A stretch of DNA of 37,655 bases from Frankiales bacterium (GCA_025966295.1 JAOPVD010000034.1:1-37655); one strand, 5' to 3'. Shown: positions 1 to 19,415, counted from the stretch's first letter. Notes: generated by a model not told the origin, from the letters alone. Numbers and translations are program-made.

Positions 1-1269
1 GTCTGAGCCCTCCGAACGTGGGCGCTGGTTCCGTGGATCACCGGAGGGGGGCGGGGGGGCCGAGGGGGCCGGAGCGACGGTGGGGGGGACCGGGGGTGCG
101 GTACCGGTGATGTCGAGGCGACGCTCGAGGCGCTCGAGGCGGGTCATCATGGCGGCGTCGTCGGAGGACGCGGAGGGCAGCAGCACCCGGGCGCAGACCA
201 GCTCGAGGAGCAGCCGCGGCGAGGTGGTGCCGCGCATCTCGGTCAGTCCGGCGTGGAACAGGTCCGCGGCCCGCGACAGGCCGGCGGTGCCGAGCGAGGC
301 GGCCTGCCGGGCCATCGCGGCGAGCTGGTCGGGCGGGCAGTCGAGCAGCCCCTTGTCGCCGGCCTCGGGTACGGCGTCGAGCACCACCAGGTCGCGCAAC
401 CGCTCCAGGACGTCGGCGGCGAACCGGCGCGGGTCGTGGCCGTTCTCCATGACCCGGTCGACGGTGGCGAACACGGCCGCGCCGTCCCGGACCGCGAACG
501 CGTCCACGACGTCGTCGAGCAGCGTGTCCGGGGTGACCCCGAGCAGCGAGGCGGCGGCCTCGCGGGTGACGCCGGCACTGCCGGCCGACGCCAGCACCTG
601 GTCCAGGATCGACAGTCCGTCACGGGCGCTGCCGGCGGCCGCCCGCACCACCAGCGGCAGCACCGTCGGGTCGACGGCGATGCCCTCCTTGTCGACGACG
701 TCCTGCAGCAGCGCGGTGAGCTCGCGGCGCGGCATCAGCCGGAACGGGTAGTGGTGGGTGCGCGAGCGGATGGTGGCGAGCACCTTCTCCGGCTCGGTGG
801 TCGCGAACACGAAGCGCAGGAAGTCCGGCGGTTCCTCGACCAGCTTGAGGAGGGCGTTGAAGCCCTCCCGCGACACCATGTGCGCCTCGTCGATGATGTA
901 GATCTTGAACTGGCTGGAGACGGGCGCGTAGAAGGCCCGCTCACGCAGGTCGCGGGCGTCGTCGACACCACCGTGCGAGGCCGCGTCGATCTCGACGACG
1001 TCCAGCGAGCCGGGGCCCATGGGGGCCAGCGCGATGCAGCTGTCGCAGAGCCCGCACGGGTCGGGCGTGGGGCCCTTCTCGCAGTTGAGGGAGCGGGCCA
1101 GGATCCGGGCGCTGGACGTCTTGCCGCATCCGCGCGGACCGCTGAACAGGTACGCGTGGTGCACGCGTCCGTTGCGGAGCGCCTGCTGGAGGGGGCCGGT
1201 GACGTGCTCCTGGCCCTTGACCTCGGCGAAGCTCCCGGGCCGGTACTTCCGGTACAGCGCCAGGCTCAC
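1..1269 (-). CDS. dnaX: DNA polymerase III subunit gamma/tau (C-terminus runs off the window)
   Basis: Not in the ORF track; translated by hand from GTG at 1269: MSLALYRKYRPGSFAEVKGQEHV...LFSGPRGCGKTSSARILARSLNC...CGLCDSC...EIDAASHGGVDDAR...IIDEAHM...ATIRSR. Adjacent to the SRP RNA, as is usual. Confidence 0.97.
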   Translation of the reverse strand, partial: MSLALYRKYRPGSFAEVKGQEHVTGPLQQALRNGRVHHAYLFSGPRGCGKTSSARILARSLNCEKGPTPDPCGLCDSCIALAPMGPGSLDVVEIDAASHGGVDDARDLRERAFYAPVSSQFKIYIIDEAHMVSREGFNALLKLVEEPPDFLRFVFATTEPEKVLATIRSRTHHYPFRLMPRRELTALLQDVVDKEGIAVDPTVLPLVVRAAAGSARDGLSILDQVLASAGSAGVTREAAASLLGVTPDTLLDDVVDAFAVRDGAAVFATVDRVMENGHDPRRFAADVLERLRDLVVLDAVPEAGDKGLLDCPPDQLAAMARQAASLGTAGLSRAADLFHAGLTEMRGTTSPRLLLELVCARVLLPSASSDDAAMMTRLERLERRLDITGTAPPVPPTVAPAPSAPPPPSGDPRNQRPRSEGSD

Positions 1270-1299
1270 GCGGTCATCCTCCCTGGGGCTCCAGCTGAA

Positions 1300-1391
1300 G
1301 GACCCCTCGCGCACCCGCCCAGAGCCCGCCTGCCCTTGCTGCCTTCCGGCCCTGGGGGAGTTCAGCGAGATGGGCGCCGCACGAGGGGTCT
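1300..1391 (-). ncRNA. ffs: Signal recognition particle small RNA (4.5S)
   Basis: Reverse complement contains the domain IV motif CAGGGCCGGAAGGCAGCAAGGG inside a long stem closed by GACCCCTCG...CGAGGGGTC; sits directly upstream of dnaX. Confidence 0.93.
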
Positions 1392-1471
1392 GCTGCCACT
1401 CTAGCCCGGGCTGCGGGCAGCGTCGGGAGCGCCGTACCCGGCCCGCGGCGCGACCTTGTAATCTCGTCGGC

Positions 1472-1560
1472 GGAGGATTCGCCTAGTTGGCCTATGGCGC
1501 ACGCTTGGAAAGCGTGTTGGGGGCAACCCCTCGCGAGTTCGAATCTCGCATCCTCCGCCA
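1472..1560 (+). tRNA. tRNA-Ser(GGA)
   Basis: GGAGGAT/ATCCTCC acceptor stem, anticodon arm CACGC-TTGGAAA-GCGTG, long variable arm, GTTCGAATC T-loop, encoded CCA. Confidence 0.97.
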
Positions 1561-1566
1561 CCACGA

Positions 1567-1598
1567 CGAGCCCGTCCCCTGCCAAGGGGGCGGGTTCG
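1567..1598. terminator. GC-rich hairpin between tRNA-Ser and the convergent ORF
   Basis: CGAGCCCGTCCCCT-GCCA-AGGGGGCGGGTTCG, 14-bp stem including two G-U pairs; no U-tract. Confidence 0.65.
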
Positions 1599-1608
1599 GT
1601 CGCTTCCG

Positions 1609-1995
1609 CTACAGGATCAGGGCGCGCTGGGACGGCGCGAACACCGCGTCCCCGGTGTAGCTGACGACGACCTGGTCGGCGTCCAGCGGCAGGGCCCAGC
1701 GGGCCGTGACGCTGCCGCCGCTCACCTGCGCCTGGGCGAGGACCTGCTCACCGGCCTGCACCAGCAGCCAGCCGCCGGGGCTGCCGGCCCCGGCGCCGGC
1801 CTTGACGGGCTTGACGGTGGCGGTGGTGGTGCGGACCCCGTCGGTCGCGGTGCTGGTGACGACCGACAGCACCGTGGCGACCTTGCGGTCCGGGATCGGC
1901 CCGGCGTCGCGCGCAGCGACAGCGGCGCCCAACCCGACGGCCTCCCGCATATCGACGTCGCTCTGGTCCTGGCGCGGTACGGCGTTGTCGGGCAT
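1609..1995 (-). CDS. Small protein with probable Ig-like (Big_3-type) C-terminal domain
   Basis: ATG at 1995 after AGGAGAAGG; ends in beta-rich ...GSVTARWALP...VVVSYTGDAVFAPS, typical of bacterial Ig-like group 3 repeats. The longer 478-aa call is the antisense shadow of 2408-3283. Confidence 0.6.
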   Translation of the reverse strand: MPDNAVPRQDQSDVDMREAVGLGAAVAARDAGPIPDRKVATVLSVVTSTATDGVRTTTATVKPVKAGAGAGSPGGWLLVQAGEQVLAQAQVSGGSVTARWALPLDADQVVVSYTGDAVFAPSQRALIL

Positions 1996-2321
1996 GACCT
2001 TCTCCTGGGCACTCGGTCCTGGCCCGGCTCGGCCAGTCGCCACCCACGGTCCTCTGCCGGTTTCGTCGGTTCTGTCTCCCCGGCGACAGAACCGCTGTCC
2101 GGCTGGCGACATGGACGGGTGTTCACCCCGGGGCAGGTCCTGACGGCGCCGGGGCCGGCCGGGGTTCCACTCGACGTACTCGGTGCGGGTGGCCGAGGTG
2201 ACTCGGTCAGCACGTCCCCCCGACCTATCCGCGGGCGTGCGTTCACCCGTCCGGGTGGTGGCCGGCCGAGGCCGTACCCCCGGCCGGTACCGCCGCGATG
2301 ACGGGGTGGAGCAGCCGCTCC

Positions 2322-2396
2322 CGACAAAGGCAAACCCGTCGCGATGCGGGGACGCAAAGCCACGGGGCCTCGCCTGCCGAGGTAGCCCAGCCGCCC
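2322..2396 (+). promoter_or_regulatory. c-di-GMP-I (GEMM) riboswitch
   Basis: AAAGGCAAACCCGTCGCGATGCGGGGACGCAAAGCCACGGGGCCTCG...GAGGTAGCCCAGCCGCC has the GGCAAAC...GACGCAAAGC...GCC layout of the family, just upstream of the GAGGAG RBS of 2408. Confidence 0.85.
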
Positions 2397-2407
2397 AGAG
2401 GAGAACC

Positions 2408-3283
2408 ATGCGCATCCGTACCGCCGCCATCCCGGCCGGGGTTGCCCTGTTCCTGGTGACTGCCGTCGCCGGGCCCGCCACCGCAGCCGCCTCCCCCGAC
2501 ACCGACCGGGACGGGATGTCGAACGCCTGGGAGAAGGCCCACAAGCTCAACCCCCGGAACGCGGCCGACGCCAAGACCGACCTCGACCAGGACGGTCTGA
2601 ACAACCTGGCCGAGTACCGGCTCAAGGGCAACCCGCGGGACGAGGACACCGACAACGACGGCCAGGACGACGGCGACGAGCGCTCGAGCCGCACCCGCGT
2701 CGACAAGGCCGACACCGACGGCGACCGGGTCCCGGACGGCGACGAGGACGCCGACCGCGACGGCATCGCCAACGAGGACGAGGACGACGCCACGGAGGCC
2801 TGCAAGGCCGACGACGACGACGTGGACGGGGACAACGTCGACGACGAGGACGAGAACGAGCAGCGCCTCAAGGTCGGTTCCGCCGACAGCGACCGGGACG
2901 GCATCCGGGACGGTGACGAGGACGCCGACGGCGATGGCGAGGCCAACGAGGACGAGGACGACCTGGTCGTCGACAAGTGCAGCGGCGACCGCAACGGCGA
3001 CGGACGCGACGACGAGGACGCAGGTGACGCCTTCGGCACGATCACGTCCTACGACGCCGACAGCGGCGTGCTCAGCCTGGTGGCCCCCAACGGCAGGCAG
3101 CTCACGGTGCCGGTCACCGACGAGACCGAGATCGAGCTCGTCGGCCCCGGCAAGGACGCTGACGGCACCGTCGAGGACCTGCAGGCCGGCCGCGGTGTCG
3201 CGGAGCTCGACATCGAGGACGGCGCGCTGGAGGAGATCGCGCTGCTGCCGGCGCAGGAGCCGGGCGCGCCCGCCGCAGCTTGA
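2408..3283 (+). CDS. Secreted acidic protein with thrombospondin type-3-like DxDxDG calcium-binding repeats
   Basis: GAGGAG RBS, signal peptide (MRIRTAAIPAGVALFLVTAVAGPATAAA), repeated DTDRDG/DLDQDG/DTDNDG/DTDGDR/DADRDG/DSDRDG/DADGDG units. Confidence 0.85.
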   Translation: MRIRTAAIPAGVALFLVTAVAGPATAAASPDTDRDGMSNAWEKAHKLNPRNAADAKTDLDQDGLNNLAEYRLKGNPRDEDTDNDGQDDGDERSSRTRVDKADTDGDRVPDGDEDADRDGIANEDEDDATEACKADDDDVDGDNVDDEDENEQRLKVGSADSDRDGIRDGDEDADGDGEANEDEDDLVVDKCSGDRNGDGRDDEDAGDAFGTITSYDADSGVLSLVAPNGRQLTVPVTDETEIELVGPGKDADGTVEDLQAGRGVAELDIEDGALEEIALLPAQEPGAPAAA

Positions 3284-3312
3284 TCCCGCCCTCTCGACCC
3301 CTTGGAGACCTC

Positions 3313-3669
3313 GTGCCGCACTCCCTCGGCGCCCCCCTCGGCTGGCCGGCCCGAGTGCCTGCCGCGCCGGAGCACCCGGCGCGGGCGGACTGCCGCTGCT
3401 ACTGGTGCTGCACCGCCGCCGCCGCCGAGCTCTACCGCGACGCCCTGGCCCGGGTGACCGAAATGAGCCTGACGGAGGCCGCCCGCGCCGCCGGCGCCCG
3501 GACTCCCGAGGAGGTGTCGGTGCTCGCCGCGGAGATCAGCAGCGAGCGTCAGCGGCTCGGGCCTGACGCCGCCGGCCGGGTGGAGGCTGTGGAGGGCCGC
3601 CATCAGGCGCCGGAGCCGACGGGTGCTCCTACTGCGGGCGCAGGGCCATCCACAGCGCCGTCGCGCTGA
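3313..3669 (+). CDS. Hypothetical protein with a CRCYWCC cysteine cluster
   Basis: GGAG 6 nt upstream of GTG at 3313; helical middle segment; the 3' end overlaps the convergent regulator by 41 nt. Confidence 0.4.
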   Translation: MPHSLGAPLGWPARVPAAPEHPARADCRCYWCCTAAAAELYRDALARVTEMSLTEAARAAGARTPEEVSVLAAEISSERQRLGPDAAGRVEAVEGRHQAPEPTGAPTAGAGPSTAPSR

Positions 3670-4204
3670 CCTTGCCCGGGTTGCGCCAGGAGTGCGTCTG
3701 CACGGTGCGGAAGTGCAGCGAGTCCCCCGGCTTGAGCCGGTAGACCTGCTCGTTGACGACGAACTCCAGCTGGCCGTCGAGCACGTGGACCAGCTCCTCG
3801 CCGGGGTGCACCAGAGGGCGGTCGCCGCTGCTCGCGCCCGGCTCGACGGTGGCTCGGGCACCGGCCAGGAAGAAGCGCCCGTAGGTCCCGCTGATACCGG
3901 CCAGGCCGATGCCCGTGTGCGAGGTGTAGATCGGGCGCTGGTCGCCGTCCTTGGTGAAGACGGTGGGGTCGGAGGTGTCCCCCGCCTCGTCGACGAAGTA
4001 CGCCACCGGCCGCCCGAGCGCACCCGCCACCTTCAGCAGCGTGGTGATCGTGGGGACCATCCCGCCCTGCTCGATCTTGTGGATGGCCGCGGCCGAGACC
4101 TCGGAGCGCTCCGCCAGCTGCTGGAGCGACAGGCCGGCCTGCTTGCGCAGGGTGCGGACCTTCGGGCCGATGTCGGACACGATCCGTGTCAGCTCTTCGG
4201 TCAT
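3629..4204 (-). CDS. XRE-family HTH transcriptional regulator with C-terminal cupin domain
   Basis: IGPKVRTLRKQAGLSLQQLAERSEVSAAAIHKIEQG...PTITTLLKVA (HTH_3); HPGEELVHVLDG...LKPGDSLHF...HSWRN (cupin). ATG at 4204 after AAGGAGGGAGG. Confidence 0.93.
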   Translation of the reverse strand: MTEELTRIVSDIGPKVRTLRKQAGLSLQQLAERSEVSAAAIHKIEQGGMVPTITTLLKVAGALGRPVAYFVDEAGDTSDPTVFTKDGDQRPIYTSHTGIGLAGISGTYGRFFLAGARATVEPGASSGDRPLVHPGEELVHVLDGQLEFVVNEQVYRLKPGDSLHFRTVQTHSWRNPGKVSATALWMALRPQ

Positions 4205-4264
4205 GCCCCGCCCTCCCTCCTTGCCCGACCGGGATCCAGAAGGCTGGGCCGAGGTTGCGAACCC

Positions 4265-4329
4265 TTTCACAACCGTGAACTCGGGCGTGGGCTTGACGCT
4301 GCTCCTCCGGGATGTCCAACATAGTGAAC
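4265..4329. promoter_or_regulatory. Divergent promoter region with two 16-bp palindromic operator candidates
   Basis: TTTCAC-AACC-GTGAAC (4265-4280) and GTCCAA-CATA-GTGAAC (4314-4329) flank a TTGACG -35-like hexamer (4293-4298). Confidence 0.65.
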
Positions 4330-4372
4330 GCTTCGTCCCCGATGTTCAATGGCTTGTCCCGAAGGAGTTCAC

Positions 4373-5704
4373 GTGTCCCGTCGCATCGTCATCGTTGGTG
4401 GAGGTGCCGCCGGCATCGGTGCGGCAGGTGCGGCCAAGGGCACCGACCCGACCGCCGAGATCACCGTGTTCACCGAGTACCAGGACGCGGCCTACAGCCC
4501 GTGCGGCATCCCCTACGTGCACGGCAAGGAGATCCCCGACTTCGAGCGCCTGTTCCTCGGAACCAAGCAGCAGTACGCCGACCAGGGGATCGACATCCGC
4601 TACGAGACCCGGGTCGACAGCTACGACCTGGGCGCCAAGACGGTCTCGGTCGGAGGGCAGCAGCTGCCGTTCGACGCCCTGGTGGTGGGCAGCGGCTGGA
4701 ACTACGGCAAGCCCGACGTGCCCGGTAACGAGCTGTCCGGGATCTACTACATGAAGAACATCCGCGAGGCCATGGAGTGGGACAAGGTCCTCGACACCGT
4801 GAAGAGCGCGGTCGTCCTGGAGGCCGGACCGCTCGGACTCGAGATGGTCACGGCCCTCGCCCACCGCGGGATCGAGACGCACCTCGTCGACCCGACCCCG
4901 TGGGCGCTGTCGATGGCGACCGACCCCGACATCGCCAAGCCCGTCGAGGACTCCTGGGTCGAGATGGGCGTCCACCTGCACTTCAACACCAAGCTGGAGG
5001 AGATCCTCGGCGACGAGAACGGCGCCGTCCGCGGAGTCCGCACCTCCGACGGCGACATCCCCTGCCAGCTGCTGGTCGTCGCCACGCACAAGGTCCCGAA
5101 CACTGACATCGGGCAGGCAGCGGGCCTCAAGGTCGGCTCGGCCGGTGGCTTCATCGTCGACGAGTCCATGGCCACCTCGGTGCCGGGCGTGTGGGCGGCC
5201 GGGGACTGCATCGAGGTACCGCACGGCGTCTCCAACGTGCCCGTGCAAGGCCTGTCCGGCAGCCACGCCTACGCCCAGGGCAAGGTGGCGGGCATCAACG
5301 CTGCCGGCGGGCAGCGCGCCTACCAGCCGGTCTACGTGCCGTGGGGCATGGTCGCCGGCAAGTGGATGATCGGCGGGGTGAGCTTCAGCGAGACCCTCGC
5401 GACCGCGCTCGGCGTGCCCTTCGTGATGGGCGTCGCGCAGGGCATCTCGCGCGCCCGGTACTACCCGGACATGAAGCCGGTGAAGGTGAAGCTGCTCGCC
5501 GAGCCGGGGACCCTGCGGCTCATCGGCGCCCAGATGGTGGGTGGCGAGGGCATCAAGGAGCGGGCAGACTTCCTGGCCATGGCAGTGCGTACCGGCATCA
5601 CGCTCAGGGACCTGGCCACCATGGAGAACGTGTACTCGCCGCCCATCGGCGCGCTCAACGAGCCGATCGCGCTGGCCGCGCAGAACGCGCTGTCGAAGCT
5701 GTGA
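4373..5704 (+). CDS. FAD-dependent pyridine nucleotide-disulfide oxidoreductase, CoA-disulfide reductase/NADH oxidase type
   Basis: AAGGAG RBS + GTG; GGGAAG FAD motif, single redox Cys in YSPCGIPY, TSVPGVWAAGDC, RYYP, YSPP dimerisation motif. Confidence 0.9.
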   Translation: MSRRIVIVGGGAAGIGAAGAAKGTDPTAEITVFTEYQDAAYSPCGIPYVHGKEIPDFERLFLGTKQQYADQGIDIRYETRVDSYDLGAKTVSVGGQQLPFDALVVGSGWNYGKPDVPGNELSGIYYMKNIREAMEWDKVLDTVKSAVVLEAGPLGLEMVTALAHRGIETHLVDPTPWALSMATDPDIAKPVEDSWVEMGVHLHFNTKLEEILGDENGAVRGVRTSDGDIPCQLLVVATHKVPNTDIGQAAGLKVGSAGGFIVDESMATSVPGVWAAGDCIEVPHGVSNVPVQGLSGSHAYAQGKVAGINAAGGQRAYQPVYVPWGMVAGKWMIGGVSFSETLATALGVPFVMGVAQGISRARYYPDMKPVKVKLLAEPGTLRLIGAQMVGGEGIKERADFLAMAVRTGITLRDLATMENVYSPPIGALNEPIALAAQNALSKL

Positions 5705-5967
5705 GCGCACCCAGGCAGTCCTTCCCGCGCTGGCTGCGCAGCACCTCCGAGCACCACCTGCTGGTGGTCGCCCAGGCCAAGGTGGCGCGTCGCAACGGGC
5801 TGGTGCCGCCCAAGCCCCACGGTCTCGACATCTTCTGGCAGAAGGTCTACGCGCCCGTCTTCTACCTCCTGCCGTATTCGCTCCGGGCCAAGGCGGCCAA
5901 CGCCCTGCCCGGCAGCCACAAGCAGACCTGGCACCAGCCCGATCAGGTGAAGGGGCCGGCCGTCTGA
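5701..5967 (+). CDS. Hypothetical 88-aa basic protein
   Basis: GTG overlaps the upstream stop (GTGA); reads as a real protein (SFPRWLRST...FWQKVYAPVFYLLPY...LPGSHKQTW) with G/C third positions. Confidence 0.75.
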   Translation: MSAPRQSFPRWLRSTSEHHLLVVAQAKVARRNGLVPPKPHGLDIFWQKVYAPVFYLLPYSLRAKAANALPGSHKQTWHQPDQVKGPAV

Positions 5968-6025
5968 GGCACGACCGCACGACCGCACGCAGAAACGACC
6001 CCTGTCGCCCTTGGAGGCAACACGC

Positions 6026-6517
6026 ATGAGCTCGCAGACCAACAACATCCCGAGGGCCCAAGAGGGCGACATCCTCTACGACACCAGCGAGAAGGTCTTC
6101 CCGGACATCCAGGCGGAGCCGGGTGAGACGGCCTTCGTGTTCATCCACTCGGTGCCCTTCGAGGGCTCCGTGGCGCTGGTCAACCTGCTCACCTCGACGC
6201 GCCTGCGTCGCAAGGGCTTCGACGTCAGCATCGTGCTGTACGGCCCGGCCGTCCTCATCGCCTCCGCCACCCGGGGCTACCCGTCCGTGGGCAAGGAGGG
6301 CTTCCCCGGCAACCTGTCGATGAACAAGCAGCTCAAGGTCCTCATGGACGAGGGCGCCAAGATCTACGCCTGCCGCTTCGCGATGGGTGCGCTCTACGGC
6401 ATGCGCGAGGACGACCTCATCGAGGGCGTCAAGGCCTTCAGCCCGCTCGACGTGCTCGACTCCGCGCTGACCGCGTGGCGTCAGAAGTCCTTCCAGCTCA
6501 ACACCTGGACGGTCTGA
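6026..6517 (+). CDS. MSMEG_0572/Sll0783-family DsrE-like protein (Nit1C NitB homolog)
   Basis: GGAGG RBS; EKVFPDIQAEPGE, HSVPFEGS, RLRRKGF, LYGP, IYACRFA, PLDVLD and terminal TWTV match the recalled family motifs. Confidence 0.9.
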   Translation: MSSQTNNIPRAQEGDILYDTSEKVFPDIQAEPGETAFVFIHSVPFEGSVALVNLLTSTRLRRKGFDVSIVLYGPAVLIASATRGYPSVGKEGFPGNLSMNKQLKVLMDEGAKIYACRFAMGALYGMREDDLIEGVKAFSPLDVLDSALTAWRQKSFQLNTWTV

Positions 6518-6533
6518 CCGGCTTTCCTGCAAG

Positions 6534-6574
6534 GCGTCGTACGGCGGCCCCAGACCTCGGCCGTCGTACGACGC
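6534..6574 (+). terminator. Strong intra-operon hairpin (attenuator or mRNA stabiliser)
   Basis: GCGTCGTACGGCGGCC-N9-GGCCGTCGTACGACGC, 16-bp stem with one G-U pair. Confidence 0.6.
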
Positions 6575-6598
6575 ACCACCCTCGAGGCAAGGACAGTC

Positions 6599-7267
6599 AT
6601 GGACGGCGTTCACGACATGGGCGGCAGGCCCGAGCACTTCGGGCCACTGAAGCCGCTCGACCCGGCGGAGAAGCCCTTCGGTGAGCCCTGGGAGGGACGG
6701 GCCTTTGCCGTGACCCTCCTGGCCAACCGCGCCGCCACGGCCTCCAACCTGCACGCCTTCCGGCACGCGCTCGAGCGCGTCCCCGAGAAGGAGTACCTGG
6801 CCGACTACTACGGCCGCTGGCTCGGCAGCGCCGAGATCCTGCTGGTCGAGAGCGGCCTGCTGGCGCCCGGCGCCGTCGAGGCGCGCGCCCGCAAGCTGCG
6901 CGGCGAGGCGGTCGAGGATCCGGCCGACCCCGAGCCGAACAAGCCCACCATGGAGAGTGGTGGCGGCGGCAACCTACGGAGCGTCGAGGCGGCCCCCGCC
7001 TTCGCCGTAGGTGACCGCGTCACGACCAGCAGCGACGCGGCCAGCGGCCACACCCGCCTGCCCGGCTACGTCCGCGCCAAGGTCGGTACCGTCACGGCGC
7101 TGCGCCCGGCGCAGGTGCTGCCCGACACCGCGGCGCACTTCATCGGGGAGAACCCGCAGCACGTCTACAGCGTCACCTACGACGCCCACGACCTGTGGCG
7201 CGCCGACAGCGAGCCGTTCAGCCTGACCATCGACCTCTACGAGAACTACCTGGAGCGCGCGCAGTGA
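6599..7267 (+). CDS. nthB: Nitrile hydratase beta subunit
   Basis: [54 protein letters not shown]. Confidence 0.95.
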
Positions 7268-7872
7268 CGCAGGCAGACATGCAGCCCGGCATCGACCTGG
7301 CGCTGCGGACCGAGGCCCTCGAGTCCCTGCTGCTGGAGCGCGGCCTGGCCGACACCAAGACGATCGAGACCTTCATCGGGATCTACGAGACCCAGGTCGG
7401 CCCGATGAACGGCGCCAAGGTGGTCGCCAAGGCCTGGACCGACCCGGAGTACAAGGCCCGGCTGCTGGCGGAGGGCACCGCGGCCATCGCGGAGCTGGGC
7501 TTCAAGGGCCCGCAGGGCGAGCACATGGTGGTCCTCGAGAACACACCCGCGGTGCACCACGTCGTGGTCTGCACGCTGTGCTCCTGCTACCCCTGGCCCG
7601 TCCTGGGCCTGCCGCCGTCTTGGTACAAGGACTCGGCGTACCGATCGCGCGTGGTCAGGGAGCCGCGCGCGGTGCTGGCCGAGTGGGGCACCGTGCTCGG
7701 CGACGACGTCGAGGTGAAGGTCGTGGACTCCAGCTCGGAGGTCCGCTACTTCGTGCTGCCCGAGCGCCCTGCGGGCACCGAGAGCCTGTCCGAGGAGGAG
7801 CTCGCCGCCCTCGTCACGCGCGACAACATGGTGGGGGTCACCAAGGTCAGCACCGGGGTCGCTGCCCCGTGA
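7264..7872 (+). CDS. nthA: Nitrile hydratase alpha subunit, cobalt type
   Basis: GTGA overlap; [37 protein letters not shown] (CTLCSCY is the Co-type signature), [18 protein letters not shown]. Confidence 0.96.
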
Positions 7873-8234
7873 CCGCGGCCCTCGACGTCGACGGCGCCGC
7901 TGCGCCGCCCCGGCAGAACGGCGAGCTGGTCTTCGCCGAGCCCTGGGAGGGCCGCGCGTTCGGCCTCGCCATGGCGCTCACCGACGCGGGCGTCATCTCC
8001 TACGACGTGTTCCGCGACGCTTTGATCGCGAAGATCGCCGCCTGGGAGTCCGCCCCGCCCGCGGGCGAGTGCTACTCCTACTACCGCTGCTGGCTGCAGG
8101 CGCTCGAGCAGGTGCTCGCCGACGCCCAGCTCGTGGCTCCGGACGACGTCGCCGCGCGCGCCGCTCTGTTCGCCGTCCGCCCGGCAGGGCACGATCATGA
8201 CCATGACCACGACCACGAGCACCACCACGACTGA
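7869..8234 (+). CDS. Nitrile hydratase accessory/activator protein with His-Asp-rich tail
   Basis: GTGA overlap; [22 protein letters not shown]...[10 protein letters not shown] (beta-like P14K/NhhG-type), ending [15 protein letters not shown]. Confidence 0.9.
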
Positions 8235-8628
8235 GCGGGGCGGCACCAACTCGGCCGTCGCGACCTGGGCGGGCGGATGGCGCTGCGACGTCGAGGCGGG
8301 CGGCTTCTCGCTCGTGGTCGACGAGCCGGTCGACGTCGGCGGTACCGGGCTGGGCCCGATGCCGACCGACCTGCTGCTGGCGTCGATGTCGTCCTGCTAC
8401 GCGCTCGCGCTGGCCTGGGCGGCGAGCAAGCGCGGTGTCGTGCTGCCGGACCTCCAGGTGACGGCGACCGGTACCTACAACGGTCAGAAGTTCGCGGCGC
8501 TGCTGCTCACCGTGACCACGTCGCTGCCGGCGCAGGAGCTGGCGCCGCTGCTCGAACCCGCCAAGCGGGTCTGCTACGTCTCCAACACCTTCGCGCACGC
8601 GCCGGTCATCGAGGTGGAGGTGGCATGA
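8197..8628 (+). CDS. OsmC-family protein
   Basis: VDEPVDVGGTGLGPMPTDLLLASMSSC...AKRVCYVSNT with both conserved Cys; start is 8197 or 8203. Confidence 0.85.
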   Translation: MTMTTTTSTTTTERGGTNSAVATWAGGWRCDVEAGGFSLVVDEPVDVGGTGLGPMPTDLLLASMSSCYALALAWAASKRGVVLPDLQVTATGTYNGQKFAALLLTVTTSLPAQELAPLLEPAKRVCYVSNTFAHAPVIEVEVA

Positions 8629-9179
8629 GCCCGCGCCCGGCCCACGACCACGTGCACGACCCGGCGTGCGCGGCCGCGCACGGCGACGCGGTGCCGCCCA
8701 AGGACACCCGCCGCCTCGTGCTGGTCTTCGTCTCGCCGGTGGCGCAGGAGCTCGCCGCGCTGGCCGACCGGCTGGGCTGGCCGGTCACGGTCGTGGATCC
8801 CGACTCGGCGCTGGTCGACATCGATCCCATCCCCTACGCCCGGACCGTGACGACGGTCGCTGCCGCGCGGCTCGACGACGGCTGCGACGTGGTGCTCTGC
8901 GACCACGGCCGGCCGGAGCTCGGTGACGTGCTCGCCGCGGTGCTGGCGCAGCCGGCGCGCTGGGTGGGGGTCATGGGCAGCCTGCGGCACACCGCCCCGC
9001 ACATCGCGGCGCTGCGCAGCCGGGGCGTGGCCGAGGACGACATCGCCCGGGTCCATCGGCCCATCGGCCTCGACATCGGCTCGCACACCCCGCCGGAGAT
9101 CGCGATCGCCACGGTGGCCGGGCTTCTCGCCGACCGCAACGGCCGCCCCGGCGGTCCGTTCGCCGACACCAGCAGCTGA
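8625..9179 (+). CDS. Stand-alone XdhC/CoxI Rossmann-domain protein
   Basis: ATGA overlap; WVGVMGSLRH and RVHRPIGLDIGSHTPPEIAIA are XdhC C-terminal motifs; no N-terminal XdhC/CoxI domain. Confidence 0.85.
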   Translation: MSPRPAHDHVHDPACAAAHGDAVPPKDTRRLVLVFVSPVAQELAALADRLGWPVTVVDPDSALVDIDPIPYARTVTTVAAARLDDGCDVVLCDHGRPELGDVLAAVLAQPARWVGVMGSLRHTAPHIAALRSRGVAEDDIARVHRPIGLDIGSHTPPEIAIATVAGLLADRNGRPGGPFADTSS

Positions 9180-9224
9180 TCGTGCGCCCGCCCGCGCCAG
9201 CGTTGGCCTAGCCGGGAGAAGGCC

Positions 9225-10637
9225 TCAGCGTCCCCGTGCCAGGCGCGCGTCGAGGTCGAGCAGCGCATCCCGGAAGCAGGCCAGCGGCGCCGCGGCGACC
9301 CCCGCCCCGACCTGCCCGGTGCCCTGGCGGTTGTCCAGGATCCCGGTGGTCACCTTGGGCGTGATGCCGTGCTCCACGACCCGTCGTACGTCGACGGCGA
9401 GGGGCGTGCCGCGGCCGCCCAGGGTCGGCAGGGTGAAACGGCTCGAGCGCCCGACGCAGATCCGCTCGAGCTCGGCCGTCAGCTCGCCCGCAGCGGCAAG
9501 GCCTCCCACCAGCTGACCGACGGCGGGCGAGCCTGCGGCGGCGGCGCCGCCCAGGCCGATGAGCTCCAGGACCGCGCTGTCGCCGATGTCCGGAGCGGCG
9601 TCGTCGTCGCCCCTGCCGGGGTGGTACAGCGCGTTGCCGACCATGGGCGCGGGGGCGAGGAACCACTCGTCGTTCCCGGACAGCCTGGTGCCGAACTCCG
9701 TGCCGTTGCGGGCCATGGTCGTGACCACCGAGGAGCCCTCGACCTGCCCGGCCCAGCCCGTCAGAGCGCGGGCCGCGGCCATCGCCAGGGTCAGGAACAA
9801 CAGGTGGTTGCTCGACAGGTAGCGACCGACCTCGACCCGGCGTGGGTCGGCACTGGCCATCAAGGAGGGCAGCAGGTGCTTGATCAGCAGGTTGGTGGAG
9901 GCCTGGGTGCGGACGTGGACGTCGTCGCCCATGGCCACGCCCTGGGCGGCGAACGCCAGGACCTCCACCGGTCCGCTGTGGCGCAGCGTCTCGGCGAGCA
10001 GCGGGGCGACGGCCTCGCGCAGCAGGACCAGCCGGTCGATCGCCCCCGGGGTGTCACGGCCGAACCACGCGACGTCCCCGGAGCCCTGCCCCAGCGGCGC
10101 CCAGGACGCCACCCCGCCGGCGGCGAGCTCGACGACCCACACCGGCGTCGTCGGGCCCATCACGGTGGCCATCGGGACGACACCGCCCGACTCGTTGGCG
10201 GGCCGCAGCGCGACGGAACCGCTCGCCAGCAGGGCATCTGCGGCCTCGACGTCGGCTGCCCAGCCCTCGGCCACGACCGCCGCGCGCATCGAGCGGCGCA
10301 GCGGGTCACCCGCGTCGGCCAGCTCCATCGCCGGACCCGCGTGCAGCAGCACCCGACCCTGCAGGCCGGGCACGACCTCGGACGCCGGGCGCACATCGGT
10401 GAGAGTCGGGACGCCGGTGTCCAGCCGGCGCAGGACCTCCGCGTTGGCCTCGTCAATGGGCCCGGTCAGCGGGCCCGAGAGCCGGCGCAGCGCGTCCAGG
10501 GCGACGGGGTCGCCGCCGGCGGGGATACGCCAGTCCACCTGGACGACCGGTCGTCCCTGGGCCGCGACGGCGTCCGCGAACAGCGGCAGCCCGACGTTGA
10601 CGACGGACACCTCGTCCGGAAGGGCAATGGGGTTCAT
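9225..10637 (-). CDS. DUF1116 family protein (YahG/YlbE-AllG-like)
   Basis: VVNVGLPLFA...VDWRIPAGGD N-terminus (YahG architecture), LLHAGP, AMGDD, TTMARNGTEFG, PDIGDSAVLE, GQVGAG. Confidence 0.88.
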   Translation of the reverse strand: MNPIALPDEVSVVNVGLPLFADAVAAQGRPVVQVDWRIPAGGDPVALDALRRLSGPLTGPIDEANAEVLRRLDTGVPTLTDVRPASEVVPGLQGRVLLHAGPAMELADAGDPLRRSMRAAVVAEGWAADVEAADALLASGSVALRPANESGGVVPMATVMGPTTPVWVVELAAGGVASWAPLGQGSGDVAWFGRDTPGAIDRLVLLREAVAPLLAETLRHSGPVEVLAFAAQGVAMGDDVHVRTQASTNLLIKHLLPSLMASADPRRVEVGRYLSSNHLLFLTLAMAAARALTGWAGQVEGSSVVTTMARNGTEFGTRLSGNDEWFLAPAPMVGNALYHPGRGDDDAAPDIGDSAVLELIGLGGAAAAGSPAVGQLVGGLAAAGELTAELERICVGRSSRFTLPTLGGRGTPLAVDVRRVVEHGITPKVTTGILDNRQGTGQVGAGVAAAPLACFRDALLDLDARLARGR

Positions 10638-12148
10638 GCCGTGATCTCCTGTCCCTGTCCGGCGGCCAGTGCACGGGCGGTCGAGAGCAGGTCACGCTCG
10701 GCGGCGTGGAACCCTTCTCGGCGTCCTTGCGCCAACGCACGCAGCTGCTGCGCTTGGTCGCGGCAGTCCTGCGCCATCTGCTCCACCACGGGCGGGGCGG
10801 CCCCACCCGTGGCGGTGCGGGTCTCGACGATGTGTCGCGGGTCGAGCACGTCGGTGAGGTCTGTTCCGGTCAGCCCGACTGACCGGCCGGCCTGCTCCAG
10901 CGCGGCCTCGTCGAGCATCGCGCCGTCGATGTCGATCCCGCGCAGCCCGGCGGCGTTCGCCTTGCGCACGGCGACACCGACGACCTGGTAGGCGGTGCGG
11001 TAGTCCAGGTCGCACGTCTGCATCACGTACTCCGCCAGGTCCGTGGCCTGGCAGAAGCCGTTCTCGAGCGCTGACCACATCCGCGCGGTGTTGACCTGCA
11101 GCGTGCGGATCACGCCGTCGGTCAACCGGGTGGTGCGGAGCGCCAGGTCGAGGGCGCGCGGGACCTCGCCGTACGCGTAGATGAGGTTGTCGCTGCGCGC
11201 CGACGGGCTCTTGATGACGGCGAGGAAGCCGCTCAACCGGCCGATGAGAGTGCCCGAGGCGCCGCGGATGATCGACAGCGCGTAGGGGTTGCGCTTCTGC
11301 GGCATCAGGACGCTGGACCGGCTGAACCCGTCGGCGACCGTGACGTAGTCGAACTCGCTGCTGGCCCAGATCTCCAGGTCCTCCGCCAGCTTGCTCTGCG
11401 TCCCGACGAGCGAGGCAGCCGCGGCCAGGACGTCGACCAGGCCATCGGTCTGCCACATCGCGTCGCGGGTGTGCTCGATGACGCCGTCGAAGCCCAGCAT
11501 GCTCGCGACCGGCCGGCGGTCGTCGAGCAGGCGGCTGCCGTTGACGCACCCGGCTCCACCGGGGCTGGTGTTGGTCCAGGCCAGGGCATCGACGAGCCGG
11601 CGGGTGTCACGCAGCACGGGATAGGCGAACGACAGCAGGTAGTGGCCGTACGTCGACGGCTGCGCGTGCTGCAGGTAGGTCTGGTCGGGCAACCAGCTGC
11701 GGCTGTGCTCGGCGGCGCTGAGGGCGAGGGTGTCCGCGAGCTGGGCCGCGCGGTCGACCAGCTCGGTGATCTGCCCCCGCAGGTGCAGGCGCAGCGCGAT
11801 GCGGACCGCCTCGCGCCGGGGCCGGCCGGCATGCAACCACCCGGCGTCGTCCCCGATCTGCTCGGTGAAGAAGCGCTCCCGGCTGTTGTACGGCTCCCCG
11901 TAGGCAGGGTCGTAGGGGAAGTCCTCGGGCGCGGTTCCGTGCGTCTCGAGCAGCAGGGCCAGGAGGCGCCGCGCCGGCTCGACGGGAATCACGCCGCGTC
12001 CGCGCAGGTCGAGCACGTGCGCGAGGTCGGCGAGGTTCAAGCCGGCGTGCAGCAGCGGCGCGTCGGCGTTCTCGAGGTGGAACCCCGACTCGACGAGCTC
12101 AGGGGCGGGCCCGTCGAGCGGCGGGCCGAGCCGGTGTCCGGCGGTCAT
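10634..12148 (-). CDS. Argininosuccinate-lyase-like enzyme (aspartase/fumarase superfamily), XcbC-like candidate
   Basis: LHAGRPRRE, QTYLQHAQP, SKLAEDL, SSVLMPQKRNPY, ATDLAEY, YRTAYQVVG; ArgH fold with non-canonical catalytic residues. Confidence 0.85.
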   Translation of the reverse strand: MTAGHRLGPPLDGPAPELVESGFHLENADAPLLHAGLNLADLAHVLDLRGRGVIPVEPARRLLALLLETHGTAPEDFPYDPAYGEPYNSRERFFTEQIGDDAGWLHAGRPRREAVRIALRLHLRGQITELVDRAAQLADTLALSAAEHSRSWLPDQTYLQHAQPSTYGHYLLSFAYPVLRDTRRLVDALAWTNTSPGGAGCVNGSRLLDDRRPVASMLGFDGVIEHTRDAMWQTDGLVDVLAAAASLVGTQSKLAEDLEIWASSEFDYVTVADGFSRSSVLMPQKRNPYALSIIRGASGTLIGRLSGFLAVIKSPSARSDNLIYAYGEVPRALDLALRTTRLTDGVIRTLQVNTARMWSALENGFCQATDLAEYVMQTCDLDYRTAYQVVGVAVRKANAAGLRGIDIDGAMLDEAALEQAGRSVGLTGTDLTDVLDPRHIVETRTATGGAAPPVVEQMAQDCRDQAQQLRALAQGRREGFHAAERDLLSTARALAAGQGQEITA

Positions 12149-13074
12149 CTGTCTTCTCCCATGAATCCGGCGACCGCGTCGAGCAGGCCACCTGTGTGCC
12201 AGAACAGCGCTGCCTGGTCGCCGACGGCGGCCGGCAGCACGGCGAGTGCCTTCGCCGTGTACACGGGGTCGAGGACGAGTCCCTCCGCCCGCAGGGCCAG
12301 GCACGCGGCGGCGTCACCGGCGGCCGAGGCCAGGCCGTGCCCGGGGCCGCGGGCGTCGACCAGCTCGACGTCGTCGGCCCGAGGGGCCGGCTCGCCGCGC
12401 AGGGCCGCCACCTGCCGGGCGAGGTCGAGCACCTGCACGTCCTCCACGGGTCGGCTCACCGAGGCGCCGACGATCCGGAGCGGACGGCCGTGGGCGACGT
12501 TGCCGGCGATGAGCCCGGCGAGGGTCCCGCCGGCACCGCAGGCGATCACGACCACCGGCCGGCGTCCCTGGAGCTGCTCGAGCAGCTCGTCGACGGCGAC
12601 GCGGTAGGCGTCCGCGCCCGTCGCGCTGGCTCCGCCCCTGGGCACGACGTACGGCGAGAAGCCCTGTTCCCTGAGGGCGGCGGCCGTGACGGGCAGCTGG
12701 GCGTCGACGCTGGCGCGGTCGGCGTCACCGGTGAAGCGGACCTCGGCGCCCCACGCCGCGGCCGCCGCGAGGTTGGGGTGGGAGGTGAGCGGCACCGGGT
12801 CGCCGGCCAGCACCAGGACGCAGCGCAGGCCGCCCCAGGCGGCGGCGGCCGAGGCGGCCTGGACGAAGTTGGACCCCGGCGTGCCACCGGTGACCAGGAC
12901 GTCGGCGTGCTGGGCCTGGGCGTCGGCGACGATCGGCGCCAGCTGCCTGGCCTTGTTGCCGGCGACGGCGAAGCCGGTGAGGTCGTCACGCTTGACGAGC
13001 AGCGACGTGACCCCCAGGGCTGCGGCCAGCCGAGGGGCCTGGACGAGCGGGGTCGGGAGCAGGGCCAGGGTCAC
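12145..13074 (-). CDS. PLP-dependent D-cysteine desulfhydrase/ACC deaminase family enzyme, XcbE-like candidate
   Basis: PTPL, VKRDDLTG, GNKARQL (PLP Lys), VPRGGAS, GAGGTLAG, EGLVLDPVYTAKA, FWHTGG. GTG at 13074 overlaps the upstream stop. Confidence 0.9.
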   Translation of the reverse strand: MTLALLPTPLVQAPRLAAALGVTSLLVKRDDLTGFAVAGNKARQLAPIVADAQAQHADVLVTGGTPGSNFVQAASAAAAWGGLRCVLVLAGDPVPLTSHPNLAAAAAWGAEVRFTGDADRASVDAQLPVTAAALREQGFSPYVVPRGGASATGADAYRVAVDELLEQLQGRRPVVVIACGAGGTLAGLIAGNVAHGRPLRIVGASVSRPVEDVQVLDLARQVAALRGEPAPRADDVELVDARGPGHGLASAAGDAAACLALRAEGLVLDPVYTAKALAVLPAAVGDQAALFWHTGGLLDAVAGFMGEDR

Positions 13075-14402
13075 GGCCACTGCTCTGGCTCGTCGGCGCG
13101 CGCCTTGCGGGCGCGCAGGACGACGTGGTCGACCATCTCGCCGGCCGAGCCGGCCGCCGGGTGCAGCGCCGCGATCTCCTGCGGCGTCAGCAGGTCCGCC
13201 ACCACCGCCGTGAGGGACCGTCCGGTGGAGAGGGCCTGCTGCAGCGTGTCCTGGGCCTGGTGCTTGCCGAGCCGGGTGGTGAGCACGGCCAGGACCTGCT
13301 CGCTGCCGGTGGCGTCGCCGAGGTTGCGGCGCATGGCCTCGGTGTCGACCTCCAGGCCCTCGACGAGCTCGACGGCGAGGGACGTGGCTGTCGCGGTCAG
13401 CAGGCACACCTCCGGCAGCGCCACCCACTCGGCCTTCCAGCTGCGGCCGTCGCGCTCGTGCCCGCCCACCATGCCCTCGAGCAGCACCGCGGCCTGGGCG
13501 CGGGTCAGGCGGGCCAGGGTGTCGAGGTGCTCGCTGCGCTCGGGGTTGACCTTGTGCGGCATGGTGATGCTGCCGACGACACCGGGGCGCGGCGTCTCGC
13601 GCAGCTCGCCGATCTCCGGGCGCTGCAGCTCGTAGACCTCGCCCCCGAGGCGCGCCAGCGTGCCGGTGACCATCGTCAGTACGGCGCCGACCTCGGCGAT
13701 CCGGTCACGTGCGGTGAGCCAGGAGATCCCCGGGTCGGCAAGGCCCAGCTCGGCGCAGAGCCGCTGGCGCACGGCTGGGCCGGCGGGCCCGAGCGCGGCC
13801 AACGTGCCGACACCGCCGCCGAGCTGACCCACCAGCCAACGGGGTGCGCCCTCGTGCAGGCGGTCGAGGTGACGGCGCACCTCGTCGGCCCAGGAGGCGG
13901 CTTTGAGGCCGAAGGTGACGGGTGCCCCGGGCTGCCCGTGGGTGCGGCCGGGGCCCAGGGTGTCCCTGTGCAGCTCGGCCAGCTCCAGCAGCAGCTCCTC
14001 CAGCCGCCGCAGGTCCCGGCGCACCTCGCGCAGCACGGCCCGCAGGGCGAGAGAGGTCCACGTGTCGGTCAGGTCCTGCACGGTGGCGCCGACGTAGACG
14101 TACGGGTGCACGTCGTCGTCGAGCACCTGCCGGAGGGCCCGGATCAGCCCGAGGGTCGAGTGGCCGCTGGCGCGGGTCTCGGCCGCGACCAGGTCCAGGT
14201 CGAGCAGGTCGACCGACGCGCGCTCGGTGATCTGGTCCGCGGCCGCAGCGGGCACCAGACCCTCCAGGGCCTGCGCCCTGGCGAGCGCCGCGAGGACCTC
14301 GAGCCAGCCCTGCAGCCGGCCGCTCTCGCAGAAGACGGCGCGCACGGCAGGGGTGCCCCAGAGGTGGCCGTACATCCCGGACTCGGTGATGCGGGCACTC
14401 AC
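13071..14402 (-). CDS. Adenylosuccinate-lyase-like enzyme (aspartase/fumarase superfamily), XcbD-like candidate
   Basis: YVGATVQDLTDT, GRTHGQPGAPVTFGLK, GGGVGT, RDRIAE, GSITMPHKVNPE, HERDGRSWKAEW. Confidence 0.87.
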   Translation of the reverse strand: MSARITESGMYGHLWGTPAVRAVFCESGRLQGWLEVLAALARAQALEGLVPAAAADQITERASVDLLDLDLVAAETRASGHSTLGLIRALRQVLDDDVHPYVYVGATVQDLTDTWTSLALRAVLREVRRDLRRLEELLLELAELHRDTLGPGRTHGQPGAPVTFGLKAASWADEVRRHLDRLHEGAPRWLVGQLGGGVGTLAALGPAGPAVRQRLCAELGLADPGISWLTARDRIAEVGAVLTMVTGTLARLGGEVYELQRPEIGELRETPRPGVVGSITMPHKVNPERSEHLDTLARLTRAQAAVLLEGMVGGHERDGRSWKAEWVALPEVCLLTATATSLAVELVEGLEVDTEAMRRNLGDATGSEQVLAVLTTRLGKHQAQDTLQQALSTGRSLTAVVADLLTPQEIAALHPAAGSAGEMVDHVVLRARKARADEPEQWP

Positions 14403-16029: not shown

Positions 16030-16032
16030 GGC

Positions 16033-16048
16033 GTTCACCATGGTAGAC
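16033..16048. promoter_or_regulatory. Operator candidate between divergent comA and AIR-synthase-like genes
   Basis: GTTCAC-CATG-GTAGAC; contains a TACCAT -10-like hexamer on the minus strand. Confidence 0.55.
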
Positions 16049-16085
16049 AACCGGCTCCCCGCCGACGCCGCTTCAGGAGGCTCCC

Positions 16086-17033: not shown

Positions 17034-17038
17034 GCAGG

Positions 17039-18665: not shown

Positions 18666-18695
18666 GCGGTGTGGCCCTTCTCCGGGAGGTGCGGC

Positions 18696-18711
18696 ATTCA
18701 CTATAGGAAAT
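18696..18711. promoter_or_regulatory. Operator candidate upstream of the radical SAM gene
   Basis: ATTCAC-TATA-GGAAAT containing TATAGT on the minus strand; a TTGACA lies 23 bp further upstream (non-canonical spacing). Confidence 0.5.
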
Positions 18712-18730
18712 GTCGGTGGTCGGTCCCCTG

Positions 18731-19396: not shown

Positions 19397-19415
19397 TGCG
19401 TTTCCCTTCCGGCGA

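Follow-up and report, generated by a model that had tools for sequence, protein, structure and literature searches.

A probably dedicated but facultative cobalt nitrile hydratase in a NitB-containing gene cluster of a Frankiales bacterium

In a contig of 37,655 nucleotides from a Frankiales bacterium (GCA_025966295.1, JAOPVD010000034.1:1-37655; hereafter the window), the gene for the NitB-like protein is followed by genes for a cobalt-type nitrile hydratase (NHase) and its activator (positions 6026 to 8234). The window spans contig C213 in full; the assembly to which it belongs has 378 contigs and 3.08 Mb, is 88.4% complete and has 73% G+C. The NHase genes sit within a 19.5-kb, 22-gene cluster (3632-23116) spread over both strands (Table 1). 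The reading we favor, with moderate confidence, is that a dedicated but facultative NHase hydrates a nitrile handled by this cluster to an amide that no cluster-encoded enzyme hydrolyzes. An earlier note on this sequence had proposed instead that the NHase replaces the nitrilase NitC of a Nit1C cluster and that the pathway stops at the amide; only part of that proposal stands.

All four genes from NitB to the activator score above the curated cut-offs of their families (Table 1), which confirms the gene order and the alpha-subunit motif CTLCSCY that the earlier note had recognized. The T/Y form of this metal motif marks cobalt NHases and the S/T form iron NHases. When compared with solved structures, the top matches of the alpha subunit are all cobalt-type NHases (2e-92 to 6e-71, the first being PDB 4ob1_A with 2e-92), against values of about 4e-61 for iron-type chains and 3e-45 for thiocyanate hydrolase gamma, for which the protein also stays below the family cut-off (TIGR03887, 192.8 vs 291.45). 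An alignment of the beta subunit with that of the Pseudomonas putida cobalt NHase extends over the whole protein (PDB 3qxe_B, 1.1e-34). Like the cobalt NHases of Pseudonocardia thermophila, P. putida and Bacillus (PDB 1ire, 4ob1, 3qxe, 1v29), the alpha subunit keeps the sequence VCTLCSCY, and the order beta-alpha-activator, with the activator downstream, is the one described for cobalt NHases (PMC3511329). Every sequence criterion of a cobalt NHase, from alpha subunit, motif and beta subunit to the activator and the gene order, is thus found in these genes. The four genes appear to encode a functional-looking cobalt NHase with its own metallochaperone.

The three NHase genes are tightly packed. 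Both the beta/alpha and the alpha/activator junctions are 4-base overlaps (GTGA), and overlapping start and stop codons continue from NHase beta to the XdhC_C gene; the spacer between NitB and NHase beta measures 81 bases. Cys116 is the sole cysteine of NitB, the pair Cys116-Arg117 is invariant in 72 of 72 NitBs from both cluster types discussed below, and this cysteine aligns with that of a solved DsrE/DsrF-like protein (PDB 3mc3). Since the NitB-NHase beta junction is also spanned by DNA contigs of two further soil studies (X2 over 6490-7172 with 7 differing letters, X7 over 6439-6624 with none), the junction is no artifact of this assembly. Joints reported in these DNA runs were not taken as variants of the locus: their sides are short (18-29 letters) at 90% likeness, and we take them as coming from relatives in other organisms.

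The arrangement recurs in other genomes. A scan for relatives of this NitB, taking one genome per species and mapping the surroundings by tblastn with the proteins of the window, returned 57 loci, a set biased in favor of sequences close to the query. In 30 of them NitB is followed on the same strand by NHase beta as its immediate neighbor; with four loci in which the NHase lies convergently just behind the OsmC gene and one in which it is 3.4 kb off, the NHase is present in 35/57, and the adjacency is conserved in this sense. Carriers include metagenome-assembled genomes (MAGs) labeled Frankiales, Mycobacteriales, Acidimicrobiia, Streptosporangiaceae and Nanopelagicales, two MAG contigs labeled Pseudomonadota, and the cultured Geodermatophilus ruber DSM 45317 and Planosporangium flavigriseum TBRC 198. 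Genes for cobalt/nickel transporters or chelatases (CbtA/B, NicO, CobN) adjoin six NHase-bearing loci. On one 9.9-kb contig (L032), a CbtA cobalt-transporter gene (4394-5227) lies behind NitB, and no NHase was detected there.

In a tree of the NHase alpha subunits, the 35 cluster-linked sequences lie on one side of a branch with a support of 90 in the Shimodaira-Hasegawa-like approximate likelihood-ratio test (SH-aLRT), which is below the 95 mark. On the other side are 41 free NHases, namely 40 from a sample of 400 evenly drawn genomes of the phylum and one from a second operon of G. ruber. None of the 40 free loci in that sample has NitB, CoADR-like or OsmC genes nearby. The motif CTLCSCY is kept in all 35 cluster-linked alphas, and the NHase beta of the window is 26-41% identical to the free betas of the phylum sample. 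The activators differ as well, a His-rich tail (4 or more His among the last 25 residues) being found in 29/34 cluster-linked but only 4/22 free proteins. The window activator ends in such a tail (region 8180-8234); the RPAGHDH-type His/Asp form typical of cluster-linked activators may bind cobalt. Because the cluster-linked alphas group apart from free NHases, whose own loci are devoid of the cluster genes, we regard the NHase as what appears to be a dedicated lineage that travels with one cluster type, yet is repeatedly present or absent. In G. ruber (L024, 12906-17500), a second NHase operon, of the free type (alpha 59% identical), adjoins the cluster NHase and includes an amidase-signature gene as well as a gene for a NicO-type transporter, so that this strain holds both types side by side.

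The comparison of cluster types draws on the window, a second copy from this assembly, the 57 loci and a further 17 from the phylum and relatives samples. Of these, 69 are of the present, CoADR-linked type; the other 7 are canonical, carry MSMEG_0569 and have NitBs 41-47% identical to that of the window. With tblastn probes, a carbon-nitrogen hydrolase (CN-hydrolase) was found in 0/69 CoADR-linked but 5/7 canonical loci, and an NHase in 36/69 but 0/7; the two enzymes occur together in none of the 76. The split between canonical and CoADR-linked sequences is the longest branch of a NitB tree of 72 rows (quick search, 100% SH-aLRT support), and CN-hydrolase and NHase loci lie on opposite sides of this deepest division. 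Mutual exclusion of NHase and nitrilase along NitB clades, for which the earlier note had proposed a test, is thus seen between the two cluster families. Within the CoADR-linked one, at least 6-8 changes of the NHase label have to be assumed on the tree.

Within the CoADR-linked type the NHase alternates with a different enzyme. Of the 33 NHase-less loci none has a CN-hydrolase, and 20 have a gene of the Pfam family Amidohydro_2, which is missing from all 36 NHase-bearing loci. Its slot lies between the 221-amino-acid (221-aa) protein unk221 and the radical S-adenosylmethionine (radical SAM, rSAM) protein; where this junction is visible, the gene is present in 16/16 NHase-less and absent from 5/5 NHase-bearing loci. 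The basal lineages of the CoADR-linked NitB clade are of the Amidohydro_2 type. A search of the cluster Amidohydro_2 protein against solved structures gave no match at E ≤ 0.01 and hence no functional lead, and the cluster-type gene was not found in the present genome.

The absence of nitrilase and amidase from the window, as claimed by the earlier note, was confirmed in six-frame searches of the whole assembly: the six matches to the amidase signature (PF01425) and the three to the CN-hydrolase family (PF00795) are all on other contigs. A Nit6803-type nitrilase (TIGR04048) is nowhere at cut-off, the best match being 25.7 bits vs 502.6 on another contig, and the MSMEG_0569 and MSMEG_0570 families have no gene over cut-off anywhere in the assembly, so that neither such a nitrilase nor a canonical nitC/nitG/nitH set was found elsewhere in the genome. 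No amidase adjoins the NHase in the 35 related NHase-bearing loci save for the second, free-type operon of L024, and this is also the sole amidase among the open reading frames (ORFs) scanned with Pfam (100 of 178 representative unassigned ORFs); no CN-hydrolase was found in that scan. The premise that NHases usually travel with an amidase did not do well in our sample, in which an amidase-signature gene lies within 7 kb of only 4 of the 40 free NHase loci, as judged with a single tblastn probe.

The 81-base spacer holds a 16-bp GC-rich hairpin (Table 1). A stem of at least 9 uninterrupted pairs stands behind NitB in 35/36 NHase-bearing, 17/32 NHase-less and 4/7 canonical loci; its position is kept and its sequence differs between lineages. 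It may act as a partial terminator or stabilize the transcript and in this way separate the module from the core operon; its place behind NitB hints at expression levels that differ between module and core. In the closest relatives the hairpin arms share a palindromic CGTCGTACGACGGCC core, where a protein-binding site is possible. A promoter and terminator scan of 3500-9400 gave no promoter-like site and one minus-strand terminator-like site, which is chance level, the scan being uninformative at 73% G+C. A 484-nt contig from an RNA library (metatranscriptome X17), differing at 3 letters, corresponds to NitB (positions 5983-6466), with DNA carry-over being possible; apart from it, X17 has just short pieces (33-42 nt) that fall on the genes for NHase, OsmC and others and leaves most of the stretch uncovered, which makes it uninformative on NHase expression, co-transcription and the end of the NitB transcript.

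The fixed core of this cluster type consists of an XRE-cupin regulator, the CoADR-like flavoprotein, an 88-aa ORF and the DsrE-like NitB, and it is joined by Nit1C/gpr-type rSAM, GNAT, AIRS-like and GT4 proteins, an AllF/AllG/carbamate kinase module, a coenzyme-M-type xcb set and OsmC. The NHase module is facultative, with related clusters carrying either NHase or Amidohydro_2 but never a nitrilase. According to the reading we favor, the enzyme would hydrate the nitrile group of a small molecule made or taken up by the conserved core, and the resulting carboxamide would not be hydrolyzed by any cluster-encoded enzyme.

Several observations speak against this reading. The module is dispensable, since NHase stands beside NitB in none of the ten present-type clusters of the phylum sample (NitB occurs in 15 of its 400 genomes, five times in canonical form); the changes of the NHase label on the NitB tree amount to at least six to eight gains or losses; and the position of the NHase varies, as seen in the four convergent loci and the one in which it stands 3.4 kb away. 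A strong hairpin, which could be a terminator, parts it from NitB. Thirteen NHase-less loci show neither NHase nor Amidohydro_2, because the relevant unk221-rSAM junction is off the contig, and the Pfam run covered 100 of the 178 representative unassigned ORFs. The amide could be hydrolyzed by the products of the six amidase-signature matches on other contigs, some of which may be pieces of one gene. With an assembly that is only 88.4% complete, absences mean "not found". Finally, an origin of the nitrile in the chemistry of the cluster itself is suggested only by linkage. The earlier claim that the pathway stops at the amide holds for the cluster, which has no amide hydrolase, but not necessarily for the cell, which has amidases on other contigs.

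A direct, non-orthologous replacement of NitC by the NHase, acting on the same substrate in a pathway that ends at the amide, is less likely than a dedicated facultative NHase, and we consider it unlikely. It draws on the slot directly behind NitB, which is held by nitC in the printed maps (PMC1199592; PMC11049912) and by the CN-hydrolase of L074, on the fact that nitrilase and NHase both act on nitriles, on their never occurring together in 76 loci, and on rSAM, GNAT and GT partners that exceed the Nit1C-family cut-offs. Since the nitrilase directly follows ORF1 in the printed Nit1C order (PMC1199592; PMC11049912), "same slot" is a fair description for the proteobacterial and cyanobacterial clusters. 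In the canonical actinobacterial loci, however, the CN-hydrolase directly follows NitB in only 1/7 (L074), and rSAM does so in 6/7; the statement that nitB is followed by nitC thus stands for the printed maps and fails for most of these loci. NHase-less loci of the present type have no nitrilase (0/33) but Amidohydro_2, which is also the type at the base of this NitB clade. The exchange of a single gene in a Nit1C cluster that is canonical in all other respects is contradicted by canonical NitBs that are only 41-47% identical across the longest branch of the tree, by a flavoprotein and a small ORF that are not homologous to NitH and NitG, and by a cluster that runs over both strands and has about 12 extra genes. 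What survives of the replacement idea applies between two deeply separated cluster families, and not within the CoADR-linked type with its facultative NHase and alternating Amidohydro_2.

It is also rather improbable that the NHase is a hitch-hiker, that is, an ordinary nitrile-scavenging operon beside the cluster, without chemical link to it, whose amides are turned into ammonia by amidases encoded elsewhere. The possible terminator between NitB and NHase beta, the facultative presence and varying orientation of the NHase and the amidase-signature genes elsewhere in the genome would all suit such an operon, as would the response of canonical relatives to nitrogen starvation (PMC6039565). However, the cluster-linked NHases form one lineage across Actinomycetota and the two Pseudomonadota-labeled MAG contigs, and 0/40 free NHases of the phylum sample fall among them. 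The OsmC gene that follows and overlaps the activator gene, the His-rich activator tail specific to the cluster-linked lineage and the perfect complementarity of NHase and Amidohydro_2 are likewise difficult to reconcile with a chance neighbor.

Activity toward a cyano group bound to sulfur, as in thiocyanate itself or an organic thiocyanate, instead of a carbon nitrile would suit the thiol/persulfide neighbors, namely a DsrE-like NitB with its invariant Cys, a flavoprotein whose nearest solved relatives include CoA-persulfide reductases and a full coenzyme-M-type gene set, and thiocyanate hydrolase is an NHase homologue, but it is quite improbable for a protein that exceeds the NHase cut-off (293.4 vs 249.85) and misses that for thiocyanate hydrolase gamma (192.8 vs 291.45), matches solved NHases with 2e-92 compared to 3e-45 for thiocyanate hydrolase, and has the NHase-like layout of two subunits plus activator.

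The toyocamycin NHase of the sangivamycin pathway in Streptomyces rimosus, a three-subunit enzyme, serves a dedicated pathway next to radical SAM chemistry, and its amide is an end point with no amidase after it. By analogy, the window NHase may stand nearer to such biosynthetic NHases than to the catabolic NHase-amidase pair as far as the unhydrolyzed amide is concerned. The activity and the cluster of the toyocamycin enzyme are named in PMC9204691; in contrast to that system, the window locus has no deazapurine biosynthesis genes. From the known cobalt NHases the enzyme differs by forming a separate lineage confined to one cluster type, by its His/Asp-tailed activator and by having no amidase nearby.

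Nit1C was described as a set of genes for a hypothetical protein, nitrilase, rSAM, GNAT, AIRS, a small ORF and a flavoprotein (PMC1199592). The window cluster resembles canonical Nit1C (Podar et al. 2005; Pseudomonas nitBCDEFGH; sll0783-0787) and the gpr cluster MSMEG_0565-0572 in that NitB, rSAM, GNAT and GT4 exceed their family cut-offs, an AIRS-like gene is present, a nitrile-active enzyme stands behind NitB, and a flavoprotein and a small ORF accompany it. Unlike these clusters it has no nitrilase, its flavoprotein is CoADR-like rather than of the MSMEG_0569/NitH kind, its small ORF is unrelated to MSMEG_0570/NitG, its NitB is 41-47% identical to those of canonical actinobacterial clusters, and its genes, on both strands, include about 12 more (the xcb set, AllG/FdrA/carbamate kinase, OsmC, XdhC_C and unk221). 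Judged from these gene assignments, the cluster is not Nit1C as defined in 2005, for the nitrilase, NitG and NitH are all missing and the AIRS-like protein falls short of its cut-off. In Mycobacterium smegmatis, the gpr cluster makes the cells resistant to peroxide and raises NADPH (PMC6039565), and this phenotype would fit the CoADR-like and OsmC partners in the window. Judged by title, the papers on both NHase and Nit1C concern cyanide in Pseudomonas. No published description of the NitB-NHase arrangement was found in the literature, where the supplements of PMC1199592 and Figure S6 of PMC11049912, which lay outside the search, could hold variants.

The gene map in Table 1 was drawn from codon-position G+C, Pfam and NCBIfam. 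The nearest solved structures of the flavoprotein are NoxA-3, CoADR and CoA-persulfide reductase. Homologues of all five genes of the bacterial coenzyme M (CoM) pathway, XcbA-E of Xanthobacter autotrophicus Py2 (PMC9457059), form one complete minus-strand run in the order xcbB-A-D-E-C (16050-10634); ComA and XcbA are above their cut-offs, and the XcbC, XcbD and XcbE homologues are below theirs. In contrast to Xanthobacter, the window has no alkene-oxidation genes; the product of its xcb set could be CoM or an analogue. In Paraburkholderia elongata (L070, 2-6000), ComA-XcbA-XcbD-XcbE-XcbC stands directly behind NitB. The FdrA/AllF-like and AllG-like proteins and the carbamate kinase recall the oxamic transcarbamylase AllFGH and carbamate kinase of Escherichia coli (PMC11326118), with the differences that the genes occupy two places in the cluster and that AllH was found neither in the window nor in the genome of this assembly; AllH is present in 18 related loci. 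We rejected the 88-aa ORF as a diverged NitG/MSMEG_0570 (hhalign probability 1.1%) and the 221-aa protein as a diverged AllH (0.1%).

Table 1. Features of the window, in order of position (bit scores vs family cut-offs where both are given; HMM, hidden Markov model)
Feature	Position	Strand	Evidence and remarks
tRNA-Ser(GGA), left border	1472-1560	+	ARAGORN
Helix-turn-helix (HTH, XRE) + cupin regulator, divergent from operon	3632-4270	-	Pfam HTH_3, Cupin_2; beside CoADR-like gene in most loci
CoADR/NADH-oxidase-family flavoprotein, single Cys in YSPCGIPY	4349-5704	+	Pyr_redox_2, Pyr_redox_dim; TIGR03385 237 bits, below cut-off 578.8
88-aa conserved ORF, start overlaps flavoprotein stop	5701-5967	+	no Pfam/NCBIfam match; homologues in 55 loci
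NitB	6026-6517	+	MSMEG_0572/Sll0783 family, DsrE-like; TIGR04044 198.6 bits vs 109.85; DsrE Pfam match
16-bp GC-rich hairpin in NitB-NHase beta spacer	6534-6574	+	minimum free energy -46.4 kcal/mol, z = -3.26, 1/200 shuffles as good
NHase beta	6599-7267	+	TIGR03888 169.8 vs 152.2, residues 1-221 of 222; Pfam NHase_beta_N + NHase_beta_C
NHase alpha, cobalt type	7264-7872	+	TIGR01323 293.4 vs 249.85; PF02979 4.7e-87; motif CTLCSCY
NHase accessory (activator) protein	7869-8234	+	TIGR03889 60.8 vs 46; C-terminal His/Asp-rich tail
OsmC-like protein, 38-base overlap with activator	8197-8628	+	PF02566 6.4e-15; behind NHase genes in most NHase-bearing loci
XdhC Rossmann-domain protein (XdhC_C)	8622-9179	+	PF13478 8.9e-29; closest relatives only
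AllG (DUF1116)-family protein	9225-10637	-	PF06545 3.1e-60
XcbC-like aspartase/fumarase-family lyase	10634-12304 (longest ORF; true start further in)	-	NF052535 445.9 vs 575
XcbE-like pyridoxal phosphate enzyme	12145-13428 (longest ORF; HMM match from residue 118)	-	NF052537 237.3 vs 450; PALP
XcbD-like lyase	13071-14519 (longest ORF)	-	NF052536 553.9 vs 600
XcbA-family protein (DUF7714)	14399-15271	-	NF052538 301.8 vs 150; PF24830 1.9e-84
ComA/XcbB phosphosulfolactate synthase	15268-16050	-	PF02679 270 bits
sll0787-like AIR-synthase-related protein	16086-17033	+	TIGR04049 best match, 254.1 vs 321.3; AIRS, AIRS_C
MSMEG_0567/Sll0786-family GNAT	17042-17515	-	TIGR04045 106.3 vs 68.45
MSMEG_0568-family radical SAM protein	17478-19013 (longest ORF; HMM match from residue 147, true start ~18600)	-	TIGR04043 378.8 vs 303.7
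221-aa conserved protein (unk221)	18731-19396	-	no Pfam/NCBIfam match; beside rSAM or carbamate kinase in 20 loci
Carbamate kinase	19396-20418	+	NF009007 281.1 vs 266; TIGR00746 328.7 vs 358.25
FdrA/AllF-like protein	20415-21950	+	NF004760 363 vs 433; Ligase_CoA
MSMEG_0565-family GT4 glycosyltransferase	21947-23116	+	TIGR04047 368.1 vs 259.85
tRNA-Ser(CGA), right border	23227-23316	-	ARAGORN; Rfam RF00005

The cluster was acquired horizontally, as part of an island (1561-23226) enclosed by two tRNA-Ser genes: its flanks lie close together in congeners, and NitB is missing from all 22 congeneric genomes. Both flanks are on one contig in 11 of the 22, at a distance of 0.35-10.6 kb (1.6 kb or less in seven), compared to 21.7 kb here. 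Attachment-site repeats could not be demonstrated at the island borders, the longest word shared between the tRNA region and 1301-4400 being 12 bases. Rfam gave no match inside the cluster. Outside it but inside the island is a cyclic di-GMP-I riboswitch (2319-2398, plus strand; RF01051, 46.8 bits vs 35), and the coding frame behind this riboswitch ends at 3283 and is without an assigned family. The gene for the small RNA of the bacterial signal recognition particle (1295-1393, minus strand; RF00169, 60.9 bits) lies beside dnaX (1-1314, minus strand) in a housekeeping flank common to the congeners.

The same assembly holds a decayed second copy of the cluster core on contig C60 (about 3769-7839). 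This copy still has the regulator at 82% identity, NitB at 87%, XdhC_C with an internal deletion, the 221-aa protein and carbamate kinase; of the 88-aa ORF 36 residues are left, and flavoprotein, NHase and OsmC are missing. Contig C60 may come from another strain in the bin (G+C 70.7% vs 73.2%).

A more far-reaching scheme, to which we give little credence at present, would have the cyano group made within the pathway in both cluster families, resolved by interchangeable enzymes and leading to a sulfonate-bearing thiol system. HypE dehydrates a carbamoyl group with ATP to a cyano group, and the AIRS-like protein of the window has a weak HypE match (23.8 bits). In this scheme, carbamoyl phosphate from carbamate kinase and the AllF/G-type transferase would carbamoylate a thiol or amine of a coenzyme-M-derived metabolite, or Cys116 of NitB, and the AIRS-like protein, a member of the PurM/HypE superfamily, would use ATP to turn the carbamoyl group into a nitrile or thiocyanate by dehydration. 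This intermediate would be resolved by any of three interchangeable enzymes, a nitrilase, an NHase or the Amidohydro_2 enzyme. At the end of the pathway would stand a new low-molecular-weight thiol system that bears sulfonate; GT4 and GNAT, going by their families, might help to build it, and it would have the CoADR-like protein as its own reductase and OsmC as its peroxidase. If true, this scheme would explain the peroxide-resistance phenotype of gpr.

The Nit1C/gpr clusters are of importance in the assimilation of cyanide and in the resistance of nitrogen-starved cells to peroxide, and they have been without known chemistry since 2005 (PMC1199592). That homologous NitB/rSAM/GNAT/AIRS cores have recruited nitrilase, NHase or Amidohydro_2 according to lineage is an argument for a hydratable C-N multiple bond at the center of the pathway, and it provides three enzymes for side-by-side comparison. 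Thiol and sulfonate chemistry is indicated by the linked genes for coenzyme-M-type synthesis, a CoADR-like reductase and OsmC. The two cultured carriers, G. ruber and P. flavigriseum, make the question testable at the bench, and a dedicated NHase lineage with a His-tailed activator may interest biocatalysis. As an optional module of a large soil-actinobacterial cluster in which nitrilases are never found, the NHase offers a clue to the Nit1C gene family as a whole and is not a simple swap within Nit1C.

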